Source: Nitrososphaeraceae archaeon
Lineage (GTDB): Archaea; Thermoproteota; Nitrososphaeria; Nitrososphaerales; Nitrososphaeraceae
Direction of reading: 5' to 3'
Assembly: GCA_035250975.1 (NCBI GenBank)
Contig: DATFEP010000066.1
Location: 12,117-76,116 of the forward strand
Length of the DNA stretch: 64,000 bases
Numbering within the stretch: position 1 is the stretch's first letter; each line of letters starts with the position of its first letter. The translations under genes were made by a program, and so were the position numbers. Positions 32,047 through 50,172 of this stretch are shown piece after piece. The notes beneath the pieces are model-generated. The model did no database searches, had not been told where the DNA came from, and saw nothing but the letters and a program-made list of their open reading frames with translations.

Positions 32047-33201
32047 ATGGAAAAAGGTAATATTTTTAATTTCGGAAATAACTTTTTTATTTCAATTATT
32101 TTTCTCTCGTTATTAATAGGTGTCATTGGAAATGGATTGGTCTTGGGTCAAGTATTTGCAAAAGAACATACTTCGCAGATTGATGGAGACACAGAGGGGA
32201 TTGAAGTATATCCTCATTCATACGAAAAATCAGCAAGTGATAATCCCTCATATAATGACAAGACATTTCCATTAAAATTTCAAGAACAAAAAGACGAGAA
32301 GACGGATCTAAATATAATATCAAAATCAAAGGAGCAAATGAATGCTGAAAAAAAATTTGAAGAACGGCAAGATGATACCCTAATCATGAAAGGACCAGTA
32401 TATGATGAAGAAAAAGGAGATTATGAAAAGGACATCAAGAAAGAAGATTATACGTACCAAGATAAATCCAAATATATAAGTGATCAAGAGGAAATCCAAA
32501 GTAAGAGAGATTTGCTGCGTCTGCTGCTCTTCCTTTCAAGCATTGATAGAAGCCATGAAGAGGAAAGGGATAGTAGCAGAGATTCAGGCATGGATAGAAG
32601 CAATGAAGAGGATGAAGAGGAAAGGGAAAGTAAAAAAGATTTTGCTGATGATTTCAAAGAAAGTCATTCCAATAAAAATGACAAAAATCAATTAGTTGAA
32701 AATGAAAAATCTAACCAAGAGTTTAAAAAGATTAAAGAAGATGTAATTGAAAACGAAAACAGTAGACTCCTCTCAGAAGCGAGTCAAATGGAACAAAATT
32801 CCTCAGATGTACAACCTGTATATATCAATTCAAAAAATAAATTCCATGAATATGAAATTCTCATCGCAAATGCAGGATTAGACCAATCTCTATCAGAAGA
32901 TGAAAAAATAGTTCTTGATGCATCCAATAGTTTTTCTAAAGACAACTCGATAACGGGATTCAAGTGGGAACTAATTGGTGACTCAGATATCGAAATAGAT
33001 CCTAGCAATATGCAGGTATATACACTCGATGTCCCAAATGACGTGAAGGATAAACCTTTGGAATTCCAACTAACTGTGACAAATGATGATGGACTAACAG
33101 ATACCGATACAGTAAAAGTATTGATAAATGACGAACAAAATGACGAAGATGACGAAGAAGATGACGAAGAAGATGACGAAGAAGATGACGAAGATAACTA
33201 G
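32047..33201 (+). CDS. Secreted/surface acidic protein with PKD-like Ig domain
   Basis: Signal/TM segment; IANAGLDQ..VLDASNS..FKW..FQLTVTNDDGLTDTDTVKV; D/E-rich tail. Confidence 0.8.
   Translation: MEKGNIFNFGNNFFISIIFLSLLIGVIGNGLVLGQVFAKEHTSQIDGDTEGIEVYPHSYEKSASDNPSYNDKTFPLKFQEQKDEKTDLNIISKSKEQMNAEKKFEERQDDTLIMKGPVYDEEKGDYEKDIKKEDYTYQDKSKYISDQEEIQSKRDLLRLLLFLSSIDRSHEEERDSSRDSGMDRSNEEDEEERESKKDFADDFKESHSNKNDKNQLVENEKSNQEFKKIKEDVIENENSRLLSEASQMEQNSSDVQPVYINSKNKFHEYEILIANAGLDQSLSEDEKIVLDASNSFSKDNSITGFKWELIGDSDIEIDPSNMQVYTLDVPNDVKDKPLEFQLTVTNDDGLTDTDTVKVLINDEQNDEDDEEDDEEDDEEDDEDN
33148..33194 (+). repeat. Coding 12-bp tandem repeat (GATGACGAAGAA, about 4 copies; DDEE)
   Basis: Read directly from the sequence. 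Confidence 0.9.
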
Positions 33202-33273
33202 TCCCAGAACCCTCGTTTGGAGGCTAATAGGAAAATTTAAATTTTCTATATTTTTTAATTATATCGATAAGAA

Positions 33274-34422
33274 ATTCCCATACTTTATGAAAAATACACT
33301 GGATATTATGCGAAACTAGTATTGGAAAATGGTAAATCGTTTTCTGGAACAGGATTTGGTTATCCAGTGCAGAGCTCTGGTGAAGTCGTTTTTAATACAG
33401 GAATGGTTGGTTATACTGAGAGCCTAACGGATCCATCTTATAATGGTCAAATATTATGCATGACCTATCCTCTTGTTGGCAATTATGGAGTGCCACAGAA
33501 GGACATTTTAGACGAATTCGGTTTACCCAAATTTTTCGAGTCCGAAAGAATACAAGTCAAAGGATTGATAATTCATTCATTATCAAATATCGCAAGTCAT
33601 TGGAGTTGTGTAAAAACACTAGATGAATGGTTATATGAAGAAAAAATTCCTGGGATATACGGAGTTGATACTAGAGAACTGACAAAGATAATACGCCAAA
33701 AGGGAGTCATGATGGGAGTTTTATCTGTCTCTGAAAAACCACTTGAAAAAATAGACATATCTCAAATTGTTAAAAACGAAGATTACGACAATAAAAATTT
33801 CATGTCTGCAGTAAGTTCCAATCAAATTAGAACATATGGTCATTCCAACGAAAAGATTATTGTATTGTTAGATACAGGAACCAAGTATAGTATTATCAGG
33901 GATTTACTGAAGAGGGGTTATAGGGTAGTACAACTTCCTTGGAATTCATCGTTTGATAGAGTAATATCTTACAATCCAGATGGTGTTGTAATTAGTAACG
34001 GTCCGGGAGATCCAAAGATGTGCAATGCAACGATTGAAACAGCAAAAAAATTGCTAGATAATTCGATTCCAACACTTGGCATATGTCTTGGCAATCAGAT
34101 TTTGGCTCTATCTGCAGGAGCAGACACGTATAAATTAAAATATGGCCACAGGGGACAAAACAAATCATGTATAAATATTAGGAATGAAAATTCCTATATC
34201 ACCAGTCAAAACCATGGATATGGAATAGAAGCCAAAAGTCTAGAAAAGACAGGATTCGAGCCATGGTTTTATAATCCAGATGACAAAACTATAGAGGGTA
34301 TAATACATAAAGATAAACCTGCGATAGCGGTACAATTTCACCCAGAGGCATCACCAGGACCTTTTGATTGTACATTTGTTTTTGATAAATTTAAAGAAAT
34401 TATTAATTTAAATAAGAGATAA
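33274..34422 (+). CDS. carA: Carbamoyl-phosphate synthase small subunit; probable non-canonical start (ATT 33274 or ATA 33280) upstream of the track's TTG at 33322
   Basis: AKLVLENG, GEVVFNTGMVGY, SNGPGDP, GICLG, QNHG, QFHPEA. Confidence 0.95.
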   Translation: MPILYEKYTGYYAKLVLENGKSFSGTGFGYPVQSSGEVVFNTGMVGYTESLTDPSYNGQILCMTYPLVGNYGVPQKDILDEFGLPKFFESERIQVKGLIIHSLSNIASHWSCVKTLDEWLYEEKIPGIYGVDTRELTKIIRQKGVMMGVLSVSEKPLEKIDISQIVKNEDYDNKNFMSAVSSNQIRTYGHSNEKIIVLLDTGTKYSIIRDLLKRGYRVVQLPWNSSFDRVISYNPDGVVISNGPGDPKMCNATIETAKKLLDNSIPTLGICLGNQILALSAGADTYKLKYGHRGQNKSCINIRNENSYITSQNHGYGIEAKSLEKTGFEPWFYNPDDKTIEGIIHKDKPAIAVQFHPEASPGPFDCTFVFDKFKEIINLNKR

Positions 34423-34469
34423 AAATTACCATATTAAACCTATATAAAATACATGTAAAAATAGAGTGA

Positions 34470-34476
34470 GAGGTGA
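34470..34476 (+). promoter_or_regulatory. Shine-Dalgarno-like GAGGTGA before carB; TATA box TATATAAA at 34441-34448
   Basis: Archaeal SD consensus 5 nt before ATT-CCA-AAA (MPK). Confidence 0.6.
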
Positions 34477-34481
34477 AAATA

Positions 34482-37400
34482 ATTCCAAAAAATAATGATA
34501 TAAAAAAAGTTGTTCTGTTGGGTAGTGGGGCAATAAAAATCGGAGAAGCAGGCGAAAGTCATTAGAAGATGACCGCAAATTTGATTACTCTGGTTCACAA
34601 TGCCTCAAAGCTCTAAGGGAGGAGGAAATTGAAACAGTTTTAATTAATCCCAATATTGCTACTATTCAGACGGATACAAGGTTTTCTGATAAAGTCTACC
34701 TTTTGCCTATCACTCCTGATTATGTTTCCAATATTTTAGAAATTGAAAGACCAGATTCTATAATGTTATCATTTGGGGGACAAACTGCCCTAAACTGTGG
34801 TACATCATTATTCAAAAACGGAATTATTGACAAATACGGAATAAAAGTGCTTGGAACACCAATTAACGGAATAGAAAGAACTGAAGATAGACAACTTTTC
34901 AAAGAGGCCATGCAGACAAGTAATGTTCCTGTATTACCTAGTTCCCCAGCATATTCTGTTGAAGAATCAATTCACATTGCAAAAAAAATTGGTTATCCTG
35001 TGATAATCAGGGTTGCATACACTCTTGGAGGAAAGGGAGGAGGAGTTGCCTATAATGAATATGAATTACAAGAGATAGTACATCGAGGTCTCTCAGTTAG
35101 TATGACCAGTCAAGTTTTAATAGAGAAATATGTTGGTAACTGGAAACAAATAGAATATGAAGTAATGCGAGATTATAAAGGAAATTCTATAATTGTTTGC
35201 AACATGGAAAATATTTTGGCTATGCGAGTTCATACAGGCGATAACATTGTAGTGGCTCCATCTCAGACTCTTAATAACTACGAATATCACATGTTGCGTT
35301 CTGCAGCGATCAGAGCGACGAAAGAAGTAGGTATTATTGGTGAGTGTAACATTCAGTTTGGACTCGATCCTAAAAGCGAAGAATATTGTGCAATAGAGAT
35401 AAATGCAAGACTTTCTAGATCATCAGCACTTGCTAGCAAAGCAACTGGATATCCGCTAGCATATATGGCTGCAAAATTGGGTTTGGGATATTCACTAGAC
35501 GAGTTAGTGAATAAAGTTACCAAGAAAACTACTGCATTTTTTGAACCATCTTTAGATTATGTAGTAGTAAAGATGCCTAGATGGGATTTTAATAAATTTG
35601 AGAATGTTAACCGAAGACTCGGAACTGCTATGAAATCAGTTGGAGAAGTAATGGCTATTGGGCGAACTTTTGAAGAATCCATTCAAAAAGCAATAAGAAT
35701 GTGTGACATCGGAAAGAAAGGTCTGGTTGAAAACTATGAATTCACAGAGCCCAACGAAGAAGAGTTAGAAAATATTGAACACGCACTTTTGTATCCTGAT
35801 GACAGCATCCTGTTTCAGGTTGTGAGAGCAATATACAGCGGCATGACCATAGAAAAGATAAATGAATTATCAAGCATAGATCCATGGTTTCTTGCCAAAA
35901 TAAAGAACATAATAGACATGGAAAGAAGGTTGAAAAATTCGGGAAATGATTTTGATGAAAGCCTTATAAAAGAAGCTAAAGAATCAGGGTTCTCGGATAT
36001 ACAATTATCTTCTTATTTAAAATTGGATGAAATAACTGTTAGAAAACTTAGGAAAAAATTTGGAATACAGCCAGTCATCAAACAGATTGATACCTTAGCT
36101 GCTGAATGGCCTGCTCAAACTAACTACCTTTATCTTACCTACGGCGGTGATACCGATGATATCAAGATTAGAAAGAAAGATAAGAATGCAATAGTCCTGG
36201 GAGCAGGTCCGTATAGAATTGGAAGTAGCGTAGAGTTTGATTGGGGTACTGTTAACATGGTTAGGGGTTTGAAGGAAAATGGAATAAATGAAGTATCAAT
36301 AATAAACTGTAATCCCGAAACAGTTTCTACAGACTTTGATATATCTGACCGGTTATACTTTGAGGAGATTACCTTTGAAAGAGTTATGGATATTTATGAA
36401 AAAGAAAATGATGCTGAAATAGTAACATGTGTTGGCGGTCAAACTGCTAATAATCTGACGTTAAAACTGGCAAAAAATGGAGCAAAAATAATAGGAACAG
36501 AAGCCAAAGATGTTGACAGAGCTGAAGACAGAGAAAAGTTTGGAAAATTACTTGATTCATTAAAGATTAAACAGCCTCCTTGGAAAAAATTTACAAGTCT
36601 AGATGAGGCAACTATTTTTTCCCAAGAGGTAGGATATCCCGTGCTTGTGCGACCGTCATATGTATTAAGTGGTGCAGCAATGAAGGTAGTATGGGATGAC
36701 AAACAGTTGGAAATATTTATAGAAAATGCCACAGAGGTCAGCCCGGATCATCCTATAGTTATTAGTAAGTTTTTCCAAGATGCTGCAGAAGTAGAAGTGG
36801 ATGGAATCAGCGGGAAAGACAGAATAATTATTGGATCCATTATAGAACACATAGACAACGCCGGAATACATTCAGGTGATGCGATGATGTGCATACCTCC
36901 GTGGAGATTAAATAGGGATATAATGGATACAATAACAGGCTATTCAAATAAAATAATCAAAGCTCTCAATGTCATTGGACCATTTAACATTCAGTTTCTT
37001 GTAAAGAATGACGAAGTACTTGTAATCGAGGCAAATATCAGGGCATCAAGGTCAATGCCTTTTGTTTCTAAATACGTAGGTATAAATCTGATGAATCTTG
37101 CCGCAAAAGCGATGTTAGGTAAACCTCTCCCAGAGATAAAGGATTTATGGTTGAAAACGAGCGGTTTTGGTATTAAAGTTCCTCAATTCTCCTTTATGCA
37201 ACTAGAAGGTGCCGATATAGTTTTAGGTGTAGAGATGCATTCTACTGGAGAAGTTGCGTGTTTTGGAACAAGCTTTTATGATGCTCTAAGTAAAGCCTTC
37301 CTAGCCGCAGGATATTCGCTGCCGTTACGTGGAACTTCTTTAATCACAATAGGAGGCCAAAAAAATAAGGAAAAATCGCTTCCTCTTATGTCTTTGATTT

Positions 37401-37777
37401 CATCAATGGAATTTAATATTTTAGCGACAGAACATACAGCTGACTTTTTGGAAAATAATGGTTTTAACGAAGTCCAGAGGGTTTATAAAATAAGTGAACC
37501 TGACAGGAAACCAAACATCACAGAATTACTATATGATCATAAAATTGATTTTATCATAAATATTCCTGCAACTGTAACTGTGGAAAAATATTTGGATATG
37601 TTAAATGATGAATACCAAATAAGGAGGAAAGCGGTCGAGATGGGTATTCCGGTAATGACAACCATAGAGGCAGCAATATCGTTTGTAAAAACGTTACAAT
37701 GGCTGAAAAGCAATGCTCCAACAATAGTTCCATTGAAGAATTACTTAGAAGAAGACACGATCAGTGAAAAAAATTAG
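34482..37777 (+). CDS. carB: Carbamoyl-phosphate synthase large subunit, split: join(34482..34556, 34580..37777); alternative start GTG 34473
   Basis: Exon 1 PKNNDIKKVVLLGSGAIKIGEAGE joins exon 2 FDYSGSQCLKALREEEIETVLINPNIATIQTD, which is in frame with ORF 34703-37777 (two ATP-grasp domains, MGS domain). Confidence 0.95.
34557..34579 (+). other. Candidate 23-nt archaeal mRNA intron (bulge-helix-bulge/loop type) in carB
   Basis: AGTCATTAGAAGATGACCGCAAA: hairpin GTCAT/ATGAC; central helix GGCG/CGCA; 3-nt bulges AA^A and AA^T; removal restores G-E-F-D-Y-S. Confidence 0.8.
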
Positions 37778-38568
37778 TGAAACTTTTCAGTTTTTACATC
37801 CCCTATAACAGAACCTTCCAAAGTAAATAGCATTCCAGATAAAATTGCATTCTGTTCTAAAAATAAATTAATAATTGGAGAAGGAGAAGATGTCGAATTC
37901 TTAAACTTGTGAGTTGATACCAGAGTAGAGTAAAAGTATTTGTTAAATGTTGGAATAATTATAATCTCCAAAATTCCGTTCTTTTGCAATCCATAAAGAA
38001 TTTCTTTTTTTACCTTAAGATATATCCATACTCTCTTTCCATGAACGGTGCTCTTAGGATCTATAAATATTGGATGAAGATGACCCATTATTATCTTGTT
38101 AATATTTGATTTTATTTTATTTGGAAGAGTATGACCGTGTATTAACAAAGTATCGTCAATAATAAGTCCACTAGTGTTGCATGTAACCACTGATTCTGGA
38201 ACGAGTAGATCGATATTTCCATCGTGGTTTCCAGGTATTAAGAAGACATCTAGATCTTTGGATAATTTATCCAAAAAATAAGGAACGATATTCCATTCAA
38301 TTTTGGTAATATGAGTGATGGAGCTCTTGAGGTCTCCTAAAATTATGATTCCATCTATTCTTTGTGATTTTCTTATTTCGTTAATCTCTTCTAAAATATC
38401 ATTTACTATTTGATTTGAATCAATGTTAATTCCCTTCTGAATTAGAGAGGATTCAAATCCCAAATGAAGATCTGATACTACAATGAATATTTTTTTTTTA
38501 TTTTCTCTTTTATCGATGTATTCCAAAATAAGAGCTGCATGAGGATTTATAGGATATGCCTTAGTCAC
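37774..38568 (-). CDS. Calcineurin-like metallophosphoesterase
   Basis: SDLHLG, LGD, GNHD, HGH, GHLHP. Confidence 0.9.
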   Translation of the reverse strand: MTKAYPINPHAALILEYIDKRENKKKIFIVVSDLHLGFESSLIQKGINIDSNQIVNDILEEINEIRKSQRIDGIIILGDLKSSITHITKIEWNIVPYFLDKLSKDLDVFLIPGNHDGNIDLLVPESVVTCNTSGLIIDDTLLIHGHTLPNKIKSNINKIIMGHLHPIFIDPKSTVHGKRVWIYLKVKKEILYGLQKNGILEIIIIPTFNKYFYSTLVSTHKFKNSTSSPSPIINLFLEQNAILSGMLFTLEGSVIGDVKTEKFH

Positions 38569-38869
38569 AACATAAATATAATACTACTTGATCTATTAAT
38601 TATTTTACTTGATATTCTATAAAAGTAAAAAATATCTTCATTTGATATCTTTCAATAGCTATTAGTTGATTAAATGTAAATAAAGGGTTTTTGATTGATT
38701 ATTATATATACTAAGATACTAGAAAATGCCACAGTTACAAAACAGATTATAATAAAGTATGTAATTATCTTGTAAATATTAAAGATTAATCTGTAAAAGT
38801 GAAATATTTAATGATTCTATCAAGATATCTATTTATAAATTAAATTAGTGATTTTATTATGGAATTTAT

Positions 38870-39709
38870 ATGATTATTAGCGGAGTCGAAGTCTCGACCA
38901 AATTAAAAACTGAATTAATACAAAAAGTTGAACTTCTGAAGAAAAAAGGAATTGATCCATGTTTAGCTACCATTTTGGTGGGCGATGATCAGGCTTCTGC
39001 AATTTATATTAGAAATAAACATAAAGCATGTTCTGAATTAGGAATTAAGACTAAAGACAACACGATGCCATCGTCAATTGAAGAAGAAAAACTGATCGAA
39101 TTGATAAATTCATTAAACAATGATCCATCTGTTCATGGAATATTATTACAGTTACCTCTTCCCAGTCATATAGATCAGTTCAAGGTCATAAACAAAATTA
39201 AACCTACAAAAGATGTTGATGGATTAACATACCAAAATGCAGGATTACTATTAAACAAAAAATCATCTTTGATACCCTGCACACCTTTAGGAGTTATGGA
39301 ATTATTTAATTACTACAAAATAGAACTAAAAGGAAAAGATATCGTAATTATAAATAGAAGTATTCTAGTTGGAATACCACTTTTTTTGCTGTTATTGGAG
39401 AAGGATGCAACCGTAACAATATGTCATTCAAAAACTAGAGATTTGGAAGAAAAATTGAGAAGGACAGATATAATAATCACCGCAGTTGGAAATAGGAAAC
39501 TTTTTACTCTAAAACCAGAACATGTTAAAGAGCATGTAGTGATAATTGATATCGGAATATCAAGAGAAAATGGAAAGATAATAGGTGACACAGATTTTGA
39601 AAGAGTTGCACCAAAAGCTTCTTGGATAACACCAGTTCCAGGAGGAGTTGGTCCCATGACTATTACAATGTTATTAAACAACACTATAAAAGCTGCATCA
39701 AATTTTTAG
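38870..39709 (+). CDS. folD: Methylenetetrahydrofolate dehydrogenase/cyclohydrolase
   Basis: YIRNK, HGILLQLPLP, KDVDG, PCTP, TPVPGGVGPMT. Confidence 0.96.
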   Translation: MIISGVEVSTKLKTELIQKVELLKKKGIDPCLATILVGDDQASAIYIRNKHKACSELGIKTKDNTMPSSIEEEKLIELINSLNNDPSVHGILLQLPLPSHIDQFKVINKIKPTKDVDGLTYQNAGLLLNKKSSLIPCTPLGVMELFNYYKIELKGKDIVIINRSILVGIPLFLLLLEKDATVTICHSKTRDLEEKLRRTDIIITAVGNRKLFTLKPEHVKEHVVIIDIGISRENGKIIGDTDFERVAPKASWITPVPGGVGPMTITMLLNNTIKAASNF

Positions 39710-47860: not shown

Positions 47861-48994
47861 ATGAATGAAAAAACAATAATTAAAATATTAGGTTTAAAAA
47901 TCCATAGTATGGTTTCTGGCGTGAAGTTTACTGATGAAGGTGTCTCAATTGAAAATAGTAACTCAAAAATATTGCTAGATCCAACAAAAATCAATAACCA
48001 TGATTTTGTATTTGTTTCCCATGCTCATTCAGATCACGTTTATAGAAAGCCAAAAAATAAAAAAAATATTGAAACTTTAGTTTCTCAAGAGACAGAAATG
48101 ATTGCAAATGCAAGAGGATATGATATTACTAATCCTATTTATGATAAAAAAGATTTTGAATTAATAGACACTGGTCACATATTAGGATCAAGAGGGTTAC
48201 TTGCCTATAACGATGTATATTACACAGGAGATATATCTATAAGAAAAAGAGGATTTATGAACCCATCTAAGAAGATTCCCAAGGTCGACATATTAATAAT
48301 AGAGTCTACATTTGGAAAAGCTGAGTATATTTTCCCTAATCCAAAGGATATAATACATCGAACAAACAATATTATCTCAAATGCATATGAAAAGGGAATT
48401 CCAGTTATCATTATGGGATACCCTCTTGGAAAGGCTCAGCTATTAATGGATTTTTTCAGTCATTGGGATCCTTTTTATGTATTCGATTCTATAGAGACAA
48501 TAAATTCCGTATATAGAGAAATGAATATTCCTTTAAGGGATGTTATAACTTATGGCAAAGCAGAAAAAAATAATTCTTTATCAAAAAAACCGTGGATAAT
48601 GCTATCATCATTAATGAACGGAAGAACAAAATTACTCAAAAATATTAAAGAAAAATATGAGGCTATCACGATAGGTTTTAGCGGATGGGCATGTAATCCA
48701 AGTTATAAATATATGATGGATCTTGATTATGCCATGCCTTTAAGTGACCATTGTGATTACAAAGATCTTTTACATATAGTTGAAAAAGGCAATCCAAAAA
48801 AAGTATTTACTTTTCATGGTTTCGCAGATGAATTCGCTAGATCTTTAATAAATTTAGGATATAATGCCGAACCCATTAGGAAGGGATATAGAAAAGATAG
48901 TAACAAAGCAAATAAAAAGATAAAGGAAAATAAACATTTGAGATCAAAAATAATAGAAAGGAAAGATCGATCATTGGATTCATTTTTAAAGTAA
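47861..48994 (+). CDS. MBL-fold / beta-CASP exonuclease (RNA processing or DNA repair type)
   Basis: SHAHSDH, GHILGS, YTGD, IESTFG, LGKAQ, LSDHCD, HG. Confidence 0.88.
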   Translation: MNEKTIIKILGLKIHSMVSGVKFTDEGVSIENSNSKILLDPTKINNHDFVFVSHAHSDHVYRKPKNKKNIETLVSQETEMIANARGYDITNPIYDKKDFELIDTGHILGSRGLLAYNDVYYTGDISIRKRGFMNPSKKIPKVDILIIESTFGKAEYIFPNPKDIIHRTNNIISNAYEKGIPVIIMGYPLGKAQLLMDFFSHWDPFYVFDSIETINSVYREMNIPLRDVITYGKAEKNNSLSKKPWIMLSSLMNGRTKLLKNIKEKYEAITIGFSGWACNPSYKYMMDLDYAMPLSDHCDYKDLLHIVEKGNPKKVFTFHGFADEFARSLINLGYNAEPIRKGYRKDSNKANKKIKENKHLRSKIIERKDRSLDSFLK

Positions 48995-49089
48995 AAAATT
49001 TATTTTATACTTTTTAAAAAAATAGATCTTGAATACACACTAATATCAGATAAAAAAGATGAAAGTTATTAAAAAAGTGTAACCTTATT

Positions 49090-50172
49090 TTATTTCTTTT
49101 CCTGTTCTCTAAAATATGGGATTACTTTTTTACCAAACATCTCTATATTTTTGAAGTATCCATCACCCCAGAACCTAATAATGAAATGATTCACACCAGA
49201 ATTAATAAATCGCTCTAGCATTTCGATTACTTCATCGGGTTTACCAACGCCTATTGCAGTTCTTGCTACGCTGTCTGGGATGGATAATGCAGCCTTTTTC
49301 ATTTGTTCCATAAGTTCTGGCTTATCCATTGTATATTCAGTAAAATATCTTCGAAAATCAAATTCGGAATCCTGCTGTATATTATGAACTTTCAATAATT
49401 CAGGTTTATAAAGACTAACTTTCACAGCATTTTTCATTTTGTTCCATGCTTCTTCTCCATCTTCTGTAAAATAGATATCGACATCGTTTGCAAATTGGAA
49501 ATCAGTCAAATCTCTCCCTAAAGTCTTTGCATGTCCACGTATTACGTCTGCATGGGCTTTAAATAACCCAGGGGTATAACCTATCGGAATCCAACCATCA
49601 CCATATCTAGCACATAATTCGAGCGTTTTTGGTGCACCGGCGGCAATATAGACAGGAGGTCTTGGTTTTCGAATACTCGCAGCTTGCAAACAGGCATTAA
49701 TTAGTCTATAATATTGACCATCATAATCAACTCTATTATCTGGATCTGATTGAAAGAGCTTATCAATAACTTCTAGTTGTTCCTTTAATTTGGTAACAGG
49801 TTTATTAAATTCAATACCAAAATCTACAACATTCTGAGCTTCGCCTGCACCAATACCAAGCATTCCTCTACCATTAGTTATTCTATCCAGGGTTACAGTT
49901 GCCAAGGCTATTGCAGAAGGATGTCTCCTAATTGCATCAGTAACACATGTACCTAATTCAACTTTATTCGTTAATGCACCTATAGCTGCTAGTAATAACC
50001 AAGCGTCATTTACAACAGCGTTTTTCCATTGGGGAACGTTAGTATGATCCATCGCCCATATGGAATCATAATCTAGTCTATCAGCCATCTGGCATGCAGT
50101 AATAATTTGTGTTTCATCTAAACCAAGTCTCGCAACATTAAGTCCTTGAGTAAAACCAAATTTTATCTTCAT
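49090..50172 (-). CDS. LLM-class (probably F420-dependent) oxidoreductase
   Basis: DSIWAMDH, ELGTCVT, GRGMLGIGAG, YGDGW; cofE is present in the window. Confidence 0.88.
   Translation of the reverse strand: MKIKFGFTQGLNVARLGLDETQIITACQMADRLDYDSIWAMDHTNVPQWKNAVVNDAWLLLAAIGALTNKVELGTCVTDAIRRHPSAIALATVTLDRITNGRGMLGIGAGEAQNVVDFGIEFNKPVTKLKEQLEVIDKLFQSDPDNRVDYDGQYYRLINACLQAASIRKPRPPVYIAAGAPKTLELCARYGDGWIPIGYTPGLFKAHADVIRGHAKTLGRDLTDFQFANDVDIYFTEDGEEAWNKMKNAVKVSLYKPELLKVHNIQQDSEFDFRRYFTEYTMDKPELMEQMKKAALSIPDSVARTAIGVGKPDEVIEMLERFINSGVNHFIIRFWGDGYFKNIEMFGKKVIPYFREQEKK

Follow-up and report, generated by a model that had tools for sequence, protein, structure and literature searches.

Evidence for a short tRNA-type intron in the carB pre-mRNA of a Nitrososphaeraceae archaeon and its relatives

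A bulge-helix-bulge (BHB) intron in the pre-mRNA of crenarchaeal cbf5 was reportedly described by Watanabe in 2002 and by Yoshinari in 2006. The BHB intron of the cbf5 (pseudouridine synthase) pre-mRNA in Crenarchaeota is treated by Yokobori 2009 (PMC2738675); in the accessible parts of that paper, a table gives Cenarchaeum symbiosum and Nitrosopumilus maritimus 0 introns in cbf5, and splicing is stated to have been confirmed at that time in no archaeal protein gene besides cbf5. The available text of a 2020 paper (PMC7714728) names crenarchaeal cbf5 as the only reported mRNA BHB intron besides the one that the paper itself describes, which lies in an untranslated region (UTR). Here we analyze carB, the gene for the large subunit of carbamoyl-phosphate synthase, in a stretch of 64,000 nucleotides (nt) of DNA from a Nitrososphaeraceae archaeon, an ammonia oxidiser of soil (GCA_035250975.1, contig DATFEP010000066.1, positions 12,117 to 76,116), termed the window below. 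We conclude, with a probability of about 0.9, that carB is split by a 23-nt intron of the archaeal tRNA type, present in its pre-mRNA and with a BHB motif relaxed on the 3′ side. An intron of BHB or bulge-helix-loop type with the same boundaries had been proposed from the window alone (the original prediction), and it is supported by RNA contigs, by the length classes and covarying stems of the inserts in relatives, by intron-less orthologues, by the presence of a single carB, and by the genes for EndA and RtcB.

The carB insert in DNA and RNA

The original prediction describes the sequence correctly to the base, with an insert of 23 nt at 34557–34579. Translation of 34473–34556 yields VKIIPKNNDIKKVVLLGSGAIKIGEAGE, and the same frame continues with S-H-stop, while FDYSGSQCLKAL begins at 34580 in a frame shifted by 2 and remains open to the stop codon at 37775–37777. 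Translation thus bears out the extra stretch with its in-frame TAG at 34563 and the frame shift. Deletion of the 23 nt does restore G-E-F-D-Y-S, and intron-less orthologues read GE^FDYSG (the caret marks the exon junction throughout). The second half of CarB, with the duplicated motif GSSVEFDWG, is uninterrupted, again as had been claimed. Deletion of 34555–34577, 34556–34578, or 34557–34579 gives an identical product because AAA precedes the inner stem and AAA also ends the insert, and we infer the exact cut positions within this ambiguity. The exon 1 peptide matches positions 1–20 of the Pfam family CPSase_L_D1 (pre-ATP-grasp domain) with an E-value of 0.007, below the curated cut-off, the weak score being due to the shortness of the peptide. 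In relatives, exon 1 is conserved on the 5′ side of the insert. GTG 34473 is the sole standard in-frame start of carB, and the longest conventional open reading frame (ORF) of the gene starts at 34703.

A search of sequencing runs returned 14 DNA runs in which at least half of the sampled words occurred and 6 RNA runs in which parts of them did; three RNA runs (X15, X16, and X17) and one DNA run (X2, not marked as a possible source) were compared in detail. In each of X15 and X16, two metatranscriptomes from one study, one contig spans the site and leaves out exactly 23 nt at 34555, a gap that amounts to the same product as removal of 34557–34579 because of the repeated AAA. The two contigs (record 2, 402 nt, 34483–34884, and record 9, 390 nt, 34468–34838) extend over at least 72 nt on the short side of the gap, and no other contig of X15 or X16 covers the intron. 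The DNA run X2 holds an 8947-nt contig that covers 34531–37780 with 0 gaps and keeps the insert, with a deletion depth of 0 of 52.9. Excision at the RNA level is thus observed at the positions given by the bulge rule, and the exons are joined without the 23 nt as had been predicted. A further contig of X15 matches the window at 34524–34556 and then continues with 38 different nt; its flanks agree by eye with locus L044 (29 of 30 and 24 of 24 letters), which belongs to a genome from a different family and has an intron of 21 nt in its DNA. The carB of a second organism therefore appears to be spliced in run X15.

Structure of the transcript and covariation of its stems

The segment 34530–34600 of the window folds with an energy of −15.5 kcal/mol (z = −2.66), a value matched by 1 of 200 dinucleotide shuffles. 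The inner hairpin and the AAA bulge both appear in this fold, as do three G-C pairs that belong to the central helix. As a single-sequence fold it is only moderately unusual, so that the weight of the evidence lies with the relatives and the RNA. The inner stem GTCAT/ATGAC, the AAA bulge, and the helix GGCG/CGCA with its G.A mismatch, as originally proposed, are all present in the window (Table 1). Compared with the BHB motif of two 3-nt bulges around a 4-bp helix, the carB structure has a conserved 5′ bulge and a conserved central helix, and its 3′ site takes the shape of a bulge or loop of 3–5 nt without an adjacent closing helix. This corresponds to the relaxed and not to the canonical form. 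Both flanking helices are also present, h′ on the intron side and h on the exon side, the latter set off by an internal loop.

Stems were compared over 140 distinct inserts, in which the loci found by protein search and those found by pattern are pooled, the pattern-found part being drawn from the matches listed. The junctions were fixed by the protein and pairs were counted, free of alignment, at fixed distances from them. The proposed outer helix stood only in part: AATCGG/TTGATT is able to form in the window genome, but an alternative exon-exon helix is better supported across relatives. The former pairs in 717 of 840 cells, with an A.C as its second pair in 120 of the 140 sequences, and the latter, TCGGAG with CTCTGG, in 831 of 840. 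The same exon-exon helix is selected by RNAalifold on 37 sequences (columns 4–9 with 81–86, plus two further pairs), in a consensus of 18 pairs, 6 of them with compensatory changes, that places the 3′ cut site in a 5-nt bulge.

Alignment of carB 5′ ends revealed inserts at the same site with covarying stems in relatives, in line with the original prediction. The four positions of the central helix pair in 149 of 156 cells (39 distinct protein-found sequences) and the first five of the inner stem in 185 of 192; registers slid by 1–3 give 9–49%, and none of 1000 permutations reaches the observed pairing of the inner stem. In a core alignment of 33 sequences, 95.9% of the cells are paired versus 83.4 ± 1.1 in shuffles, and 45 cells are changed on both sides versus 10.4 (0 of 500 shuffles reach either value), slid registers giving 18–55%. 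Compensatory changes affect four of the five inner-stem pairs and one of the four central pairs in this alignment. At the outermost central position, 18 of the 33 sequences have G.U, 8 have G-C, and 7 lack a pair, the G.A of the window falling within this unpaired minority; in the relatives from the protein search, the position opposite G 34551 is mostly U or C, which makes a fourth pair. The 5′ bulge positions of these relatives are A, A/G, and A/T. On the 3′ side of the 3′ bulge there is one adjacent pair (A-U), and the next three positions pair in 0 of 37 sequences each.

The helices also constrain the coding sequence. The exon Gly codon is GGC in 35 of the 37 distinct protein-found intron-bearing sequences and GGU in 2, both of which carry A instead of G opposite it in the intron, a compensatory change from C-G to U-A; in uninterrupted genes this codon is GGA, GGU, GGG, or GGC. 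Synonymous sites of intron-bearing genes are 89–98% conserved within the helices (93–98% within helix h) and 40–80% conserved outside them, in a set that is dominated by kin and was partly selected by a pattern fixing GGCGA. The same synonymous sites vary freely in the 10 uninterrupted genes analyzed.

The 140 inserts measure 17–52 nt and belong to all three length classes modulo 3. An in-frame stop occurs in all 64 inserts whose length is divisible by 3, and the other 76 shift the frame, so that no single recoding rule could handle them. These lengths bear on translational recoding, in which ribosomes would bypass, or frameshift over, the 23 nt of an unspliced mRNA. A hairpin directly after the codon with a stop close behind does resemble known bypass signals, but the flanks of the insert lack matched take-off and landing codons, and the 23 nt are physically missing from the RNA contigs. 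We consider recoding scarcely credible, and a programmed frameshift or bypass site was rejected on account of these contigs, the mixed length classes, and the stops.

Table 1. Positions of carA, the carB exons, and the intron-related elements in the window
Feature	Position	Strand	Remarks
carA, small glutamine-amidotransferase subunit	33322..34422	+	Pfam CPSase_sm_chain 1.5e-48, GATase 8.5e-51; adjoins the 5′ side of carB
carB exon 1	34473..34556	+	28 codons from GTG 34473; last codon Glu GAA 34554–34556; from translation
Exon-exon helix h, 5′ strand TCGGAG	34540..34545	+	partner 34588–34593
Central helix H, 5′ strand GGCG	34551..34554	+	codon GGC and G of GAA in exon 1; partner 34574–34577
5′ splice-site bulge AAA, 3 nt	34555..34557	+	closed by H and h′; predicted cut after 34556
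Intron, 23 nt	34557..34579	+	in-frame TAG 34563–34565; missing in RNA contigs, kept in DNA contig
Inner hairpin h′	34558..34573	+	GTCAT 34558–34562 / ATGAC 34569–34573; loop 34563–34568
Central helix H, 3′ strand CGCA	34574..34577	+	final A opposite G 34551, a G.A mismatch
3′ splice-site bulge AAT	34578..34580	+	predicted cut after 34579; no adjacent closing helix, relaxed and loop-like
carB exon 2	34580..37777	+	1065 codons and stop; Pfam CPSase_L_D2 5.4e-109, CPSase_L_D1, CPSase_L_D3, MGS
Exon-exon helix h, 3′ strand CTCTGG	34588..34593	+	partner 34540–34545

When the window is aligned with relatives, its ATT 34482 falls opposite a TTG that immediately precedes CCA-AAA, and a GGTGA-like stretch lies just upstream; on this comparison the true start of carB may be ATT 34482 rather than GTG 34473. 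Among the five ORFs at 32047–39709, Pfam identifies as neighbours of carB the gene carA and those for a PKD-domain protein, a metallophosphoesterase, and FolD. No homing-endonuclease gene was found by Pfam among these five ORFs of this window alone, and a mobile mini-intron accompanied by a homing endonuclease was rejected on this basis.

Distribution of the insert among relatives

The first 300 residues of exon 2, used as a protein query, matched all 60 relatives searched. An insert occupies the same boundary in 29 of 29 loci from 22 genomes of the window's genus and 7 from other genera of the family; 28 of these inserts are complete, and that of L019 is cut by the contig end, with its 3′ part present. 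Of 27 further genomes of the order, 13 have the insert and 14 read GE^FDYSG or AE^FDYSG without interruption, which fixes the exon junction independently of the structural model. The record labels of the relatives (Nitrososphaeraceae, Nitrosopumilaceae, Nitrosocosmicus, Nitrosotenuis, Nitrosotalea, Nitrosarchaeum, Cenarchaeum, and Nitrosopelagicus) are those of ammonia-oxidising archaea.

Among 401 genomes, 400 taken evenly across the order and that of the window, the interrupted-junction pattern occurs in 225 and the uninterrupted one in 125, with reversed-pattern controls giving 0 in every listed genome. The interrupted count is 223 of 399 when genomes G282 and G293, flagged as unpublished, are left out. 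Interrupted genes prevail in the window's genus (11 of 12 genomes, with 0 uninterrupted) and in families f1 (98 interrupted and 6 uninterrupted in 111 genomes) and f4 (9 and 0 in 9). Family f13 is mixed (71 and 41 in 112), and only uninterrupted genes were found in f7 (11 in 13 genomes), f12 (9 in 10), and f15 (14 in 15). Both states coexist within single genera, namely g39, g35 (27 interrupted and 6 uninterrupted of 37), and g22 (12 and 18 of 55), which implies repeated precise loss, or gain. Within the order the carB intron is both old and common, and many lineages would have lost it precisely.

We give a negligible probability to decay of carB into a pseudogene and to an artefact of assembly. 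It is true that the frame of carB is formally shifted and that the genome is an assembly of 91 contigs, 94.6% complete, but the remaining 1065 codons of carB are open with full domain matches, the independent DNA run X2 contains the same insert, and the interrupted form recurs in the 225 genomes of the order sample. The genome, within that completeness, contains one carB and no second copy, intact or otherwise, the two other matches being ATP-grasp paralogues with 28–29% identity. With this sole copy, the cell must splice the message to make CarB.

Among 336 genomes sampled from the rest of the phylum there was one match, by inspection a chance match in an uninterrupted gene; this is a weak negative because the narrow pattern demands Ala-Gly-Glu before the junction. 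A GTDB-wide scan with a pattern that misses introns longer than ~45 nt and Gly codons other than GGC returned at least 120 loci. Among the matches listed, 118 are labelled Nitrososphaerota, Thaumarchaeota, or unspecified archaea, and the named organisms include Ca. Nitrosotenuis chungbukensis MY2, Ca. Nitrosopumilus salarius BD31, Nitrosopumilus sp. b1, and Ca. Nitrosotalea bavarica SBT1. Locus L148, on a 182-kb contig labelled Candidatus Iainarchaeum (DPANN), has a 39-nt insert in GQAGE^FDYSG with a GGCG/CGCC central helix, and the carB site is thus also occupied outside the phylum. The 2.5-kb contig of locus L100 bears the label Heimdallarchaeota. In its carB 5′ end and in its intron it is very similar to loci labelled Nitrosopumilaceae, and it is probably mis-binned.

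The junction forms the center of the palindrome CGAA^TTCG in 58 of the 140 distinct intron-bearing sequences (loci L005–L183), and it reads CGAA^TTTG in the window (34553–34583). This palindrome may be relevant to the occupancy of the same site in distant lineages.

Splicing machinery and comparison with known systems

The genome encodes two proteins of the EndA family (PF01974), one of 184 residues with the N- and C-terminal domains (PF02778 and PF01974) and one of 113 residues with the catalytic-type C-terminal domain only (PF01974), which is the layout of the heteromeric enzyme, and one RtcB (PF01139). According to the accessible part of PMC5829648, the (alpha-beta)2 type of EndA occurs in Thaumarchaeota, and only two types, (alpha-beta)2 and epsilon2, cut relaxed motifs. 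From the shape of the RNA and the presence of these genes, we infer that EndA and RtcB act on carB. The transcript would form a rod made up of the exon-exon helix, an internal loop, the central helix of four positions, the 3-nt bulge at 34555–34557, and the intron hairpin. Heteromeric EndA would cut after the second nt of the 5′ bulge (after 34556) and, on the opposite strand, at the site that corresponds to it by symmetry (after 34579), and RtcB would then join the exons to GAA^TTT, restoring A-G-E-F-D-Y-S-G and full-length CarB. The unspliced message would stop after 30 codons at TAG 34563.

A covariance model of the intron core has carB as its sole clear match in the genome (41.2 bits, E-value 2.7e-8); the next matches are at 49057–49090 of the window (E-value 0.4) and on contig C44 (E-value 0.55). 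The match at 49057–49090 is an A/T-rich hairpin between the convergent ORFs 47861–48994 (+) and 49090–50172 (−) that interrupts nothing, and it is probably a chance match or a terminator. The program aragorn finds 19 tRNA genes in the genome, 6 of them with introns, a set too incomplete to say more than that tRNA introns exist; non-canonical introns probably conceal many others.

Several points weigh against splicing of this message by EndA and RtcB. The central helix of the window has three G-C pairs and a G.A mismatch, and the 3′ cut site lies outside a closed 3-nt bulge, so that the motif is non-canonical. RNA run X17 has no cover at the carB junction. The two spanning RNA contigs, which show 8 or 7 other differences from the window (~98% identity), represent a close strain and not this genome. 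The RNA support as a whole consists of assembled contigs of one study, not of reads, and gives no quantities, and RNA libraries can contain DNA. The contigs could stem from DNA carry-over or from a close strain without the insert in its DNA, in which case splicing was not observed, and some genera of the order do have both interrupted and uninterrupted carB. We nevertheless regard such an origin as very unlikely: the insert is present in all 22 genomes examined of the window's genus, where the order sample likewise contains no uninterrupted gene, and X2, the sole DNA run compared, keeps it. Stop-bearing inserts of every length class, covarying stems, and a single carB moreover demand removal even without the RNA.

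The mismatch and the non-canonical 3′ site, together with the indirect assignment of EndA, could also speak for removal at the RNA level by machinery other than EndA and RtcB. To this we attach very little probability, since the conserved 4-bp helix, 3-nt bulge, and inner helix are the features that EndA reads, cuts after the second bulge nt give the observed junction, and heteromeric EndA is reported to accept relaxed motifs (PMC5829648, in its accessible part). Inserts of 17–52 nt are far too short for a self-splicing ribozyme, and a group I or group II intron was rejected because its ribozyme core needs hundreds of nt.

The intron is most likely passive, whether tolerated, selfish, or a relic. 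Regulation of carB through splicing is possible but conjectural. We think it unlikely that the intron is more than a relic, in either of two variants taken jointly. As a checkpoint, it would tie the synthesis of carbamoyl phosphate, and with it that of arginine and pyrimidines, to splicing capacity, and a separate role would fall to the unspliced product of 30 codons or to the small RNA that is cut out. As a mobile RNA element, it would insert site-specifically at CGAA^TTCG by a reversed EndA/RtcB reaction; if true, this would account for inserts at one and the same codon boundary in ammonia oxidisers and a DPANN genome.

The 2020 literature, in its accessible part, knows coding-sequence tRNA-type introns for one archaeal gene, cbf5. 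With carB, an essential metabolic gene joins it, from an archaeal group that ranks among the most abundant on Earth. Gene callers see a frameshifted or N-terminally truncated carB, so that ammonia oxidisers could be credited in error, when their metabolism is reconstructed, with a defective pathway for arginine or pyrimidines. The presence and precise absence of the intron within single genera provide a natural system for the study of archaeal intron gain and loss, and the intron shows how RNA structure constrains the synonymous sites of flanking exons.

Unconventional splicing of HAC1/XBP1 in eukaryotes involves IRE1 and RtcB and serves as a regulated stress switch. As proposed for carB, a protein endonuclease and RtcB-type ligation remove a short mRNA intron and alter the translated product; the endonuclease is a different one, the hosts are eukaryotes, and the process is a regulated response to stress, whereas any regulation of carB is conjectural. 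HAC1/XBP1 splicing is mentioned in PMC13149111, and the accessible text of this paper, as well as that of PMC4836417, PMC4839502, and PMC3082918, contains nothing relevant to a carB intron. The original prediction had taken the carB intron to be undescribed, and no report of it was found in the full-text literature, a search that left subscription journals and supplementary tables outside.

Among archaeal systems, the relaxed HBh′ or bulge-helix-loop tRNA introns of TACK archaea with (alpha-beta)2 EndA have, as far as the available part of PMC5829648 describes them, one canonical 3-nt bulge, a 4-bp helix, and an inner helix, as does carB, and the other cut site lies in a looser loop; the carB host has two EndA-family genes. 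The carB intron differs from them in its mRNA substrate, without a tRNA body, and in an exon-exon pairing that comes from coding sequence with constrained synonymous sites. The BHB intron in the 5′ UTR of HVO_1309 of Haloferax volcanii (PMC7714728, in part) resembles carB as an mRNA processed by EndA at BHB sites, but it lies outside the reading frame, and its host is a euryarchaeon whose enzyme is of the homomeric type. Closest is the intron of cbf5: as far as the sources seen in part describe it, it shares with carB a short tRNA-type intron within the coding sequence of archaea with heteromeric EndA, a patchy distribution with gains and losses, and its mistaking for a frameshift by annotators. 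The two differ in gene, lineage, and position, the carB intron being shorter (17–52 nt) and lying 25–28 codons into an essential metabolic gene. As far as the literature searched shows, the class of mechanism is known, and the gene, the lineage, and the breadth of its occurrence are new.

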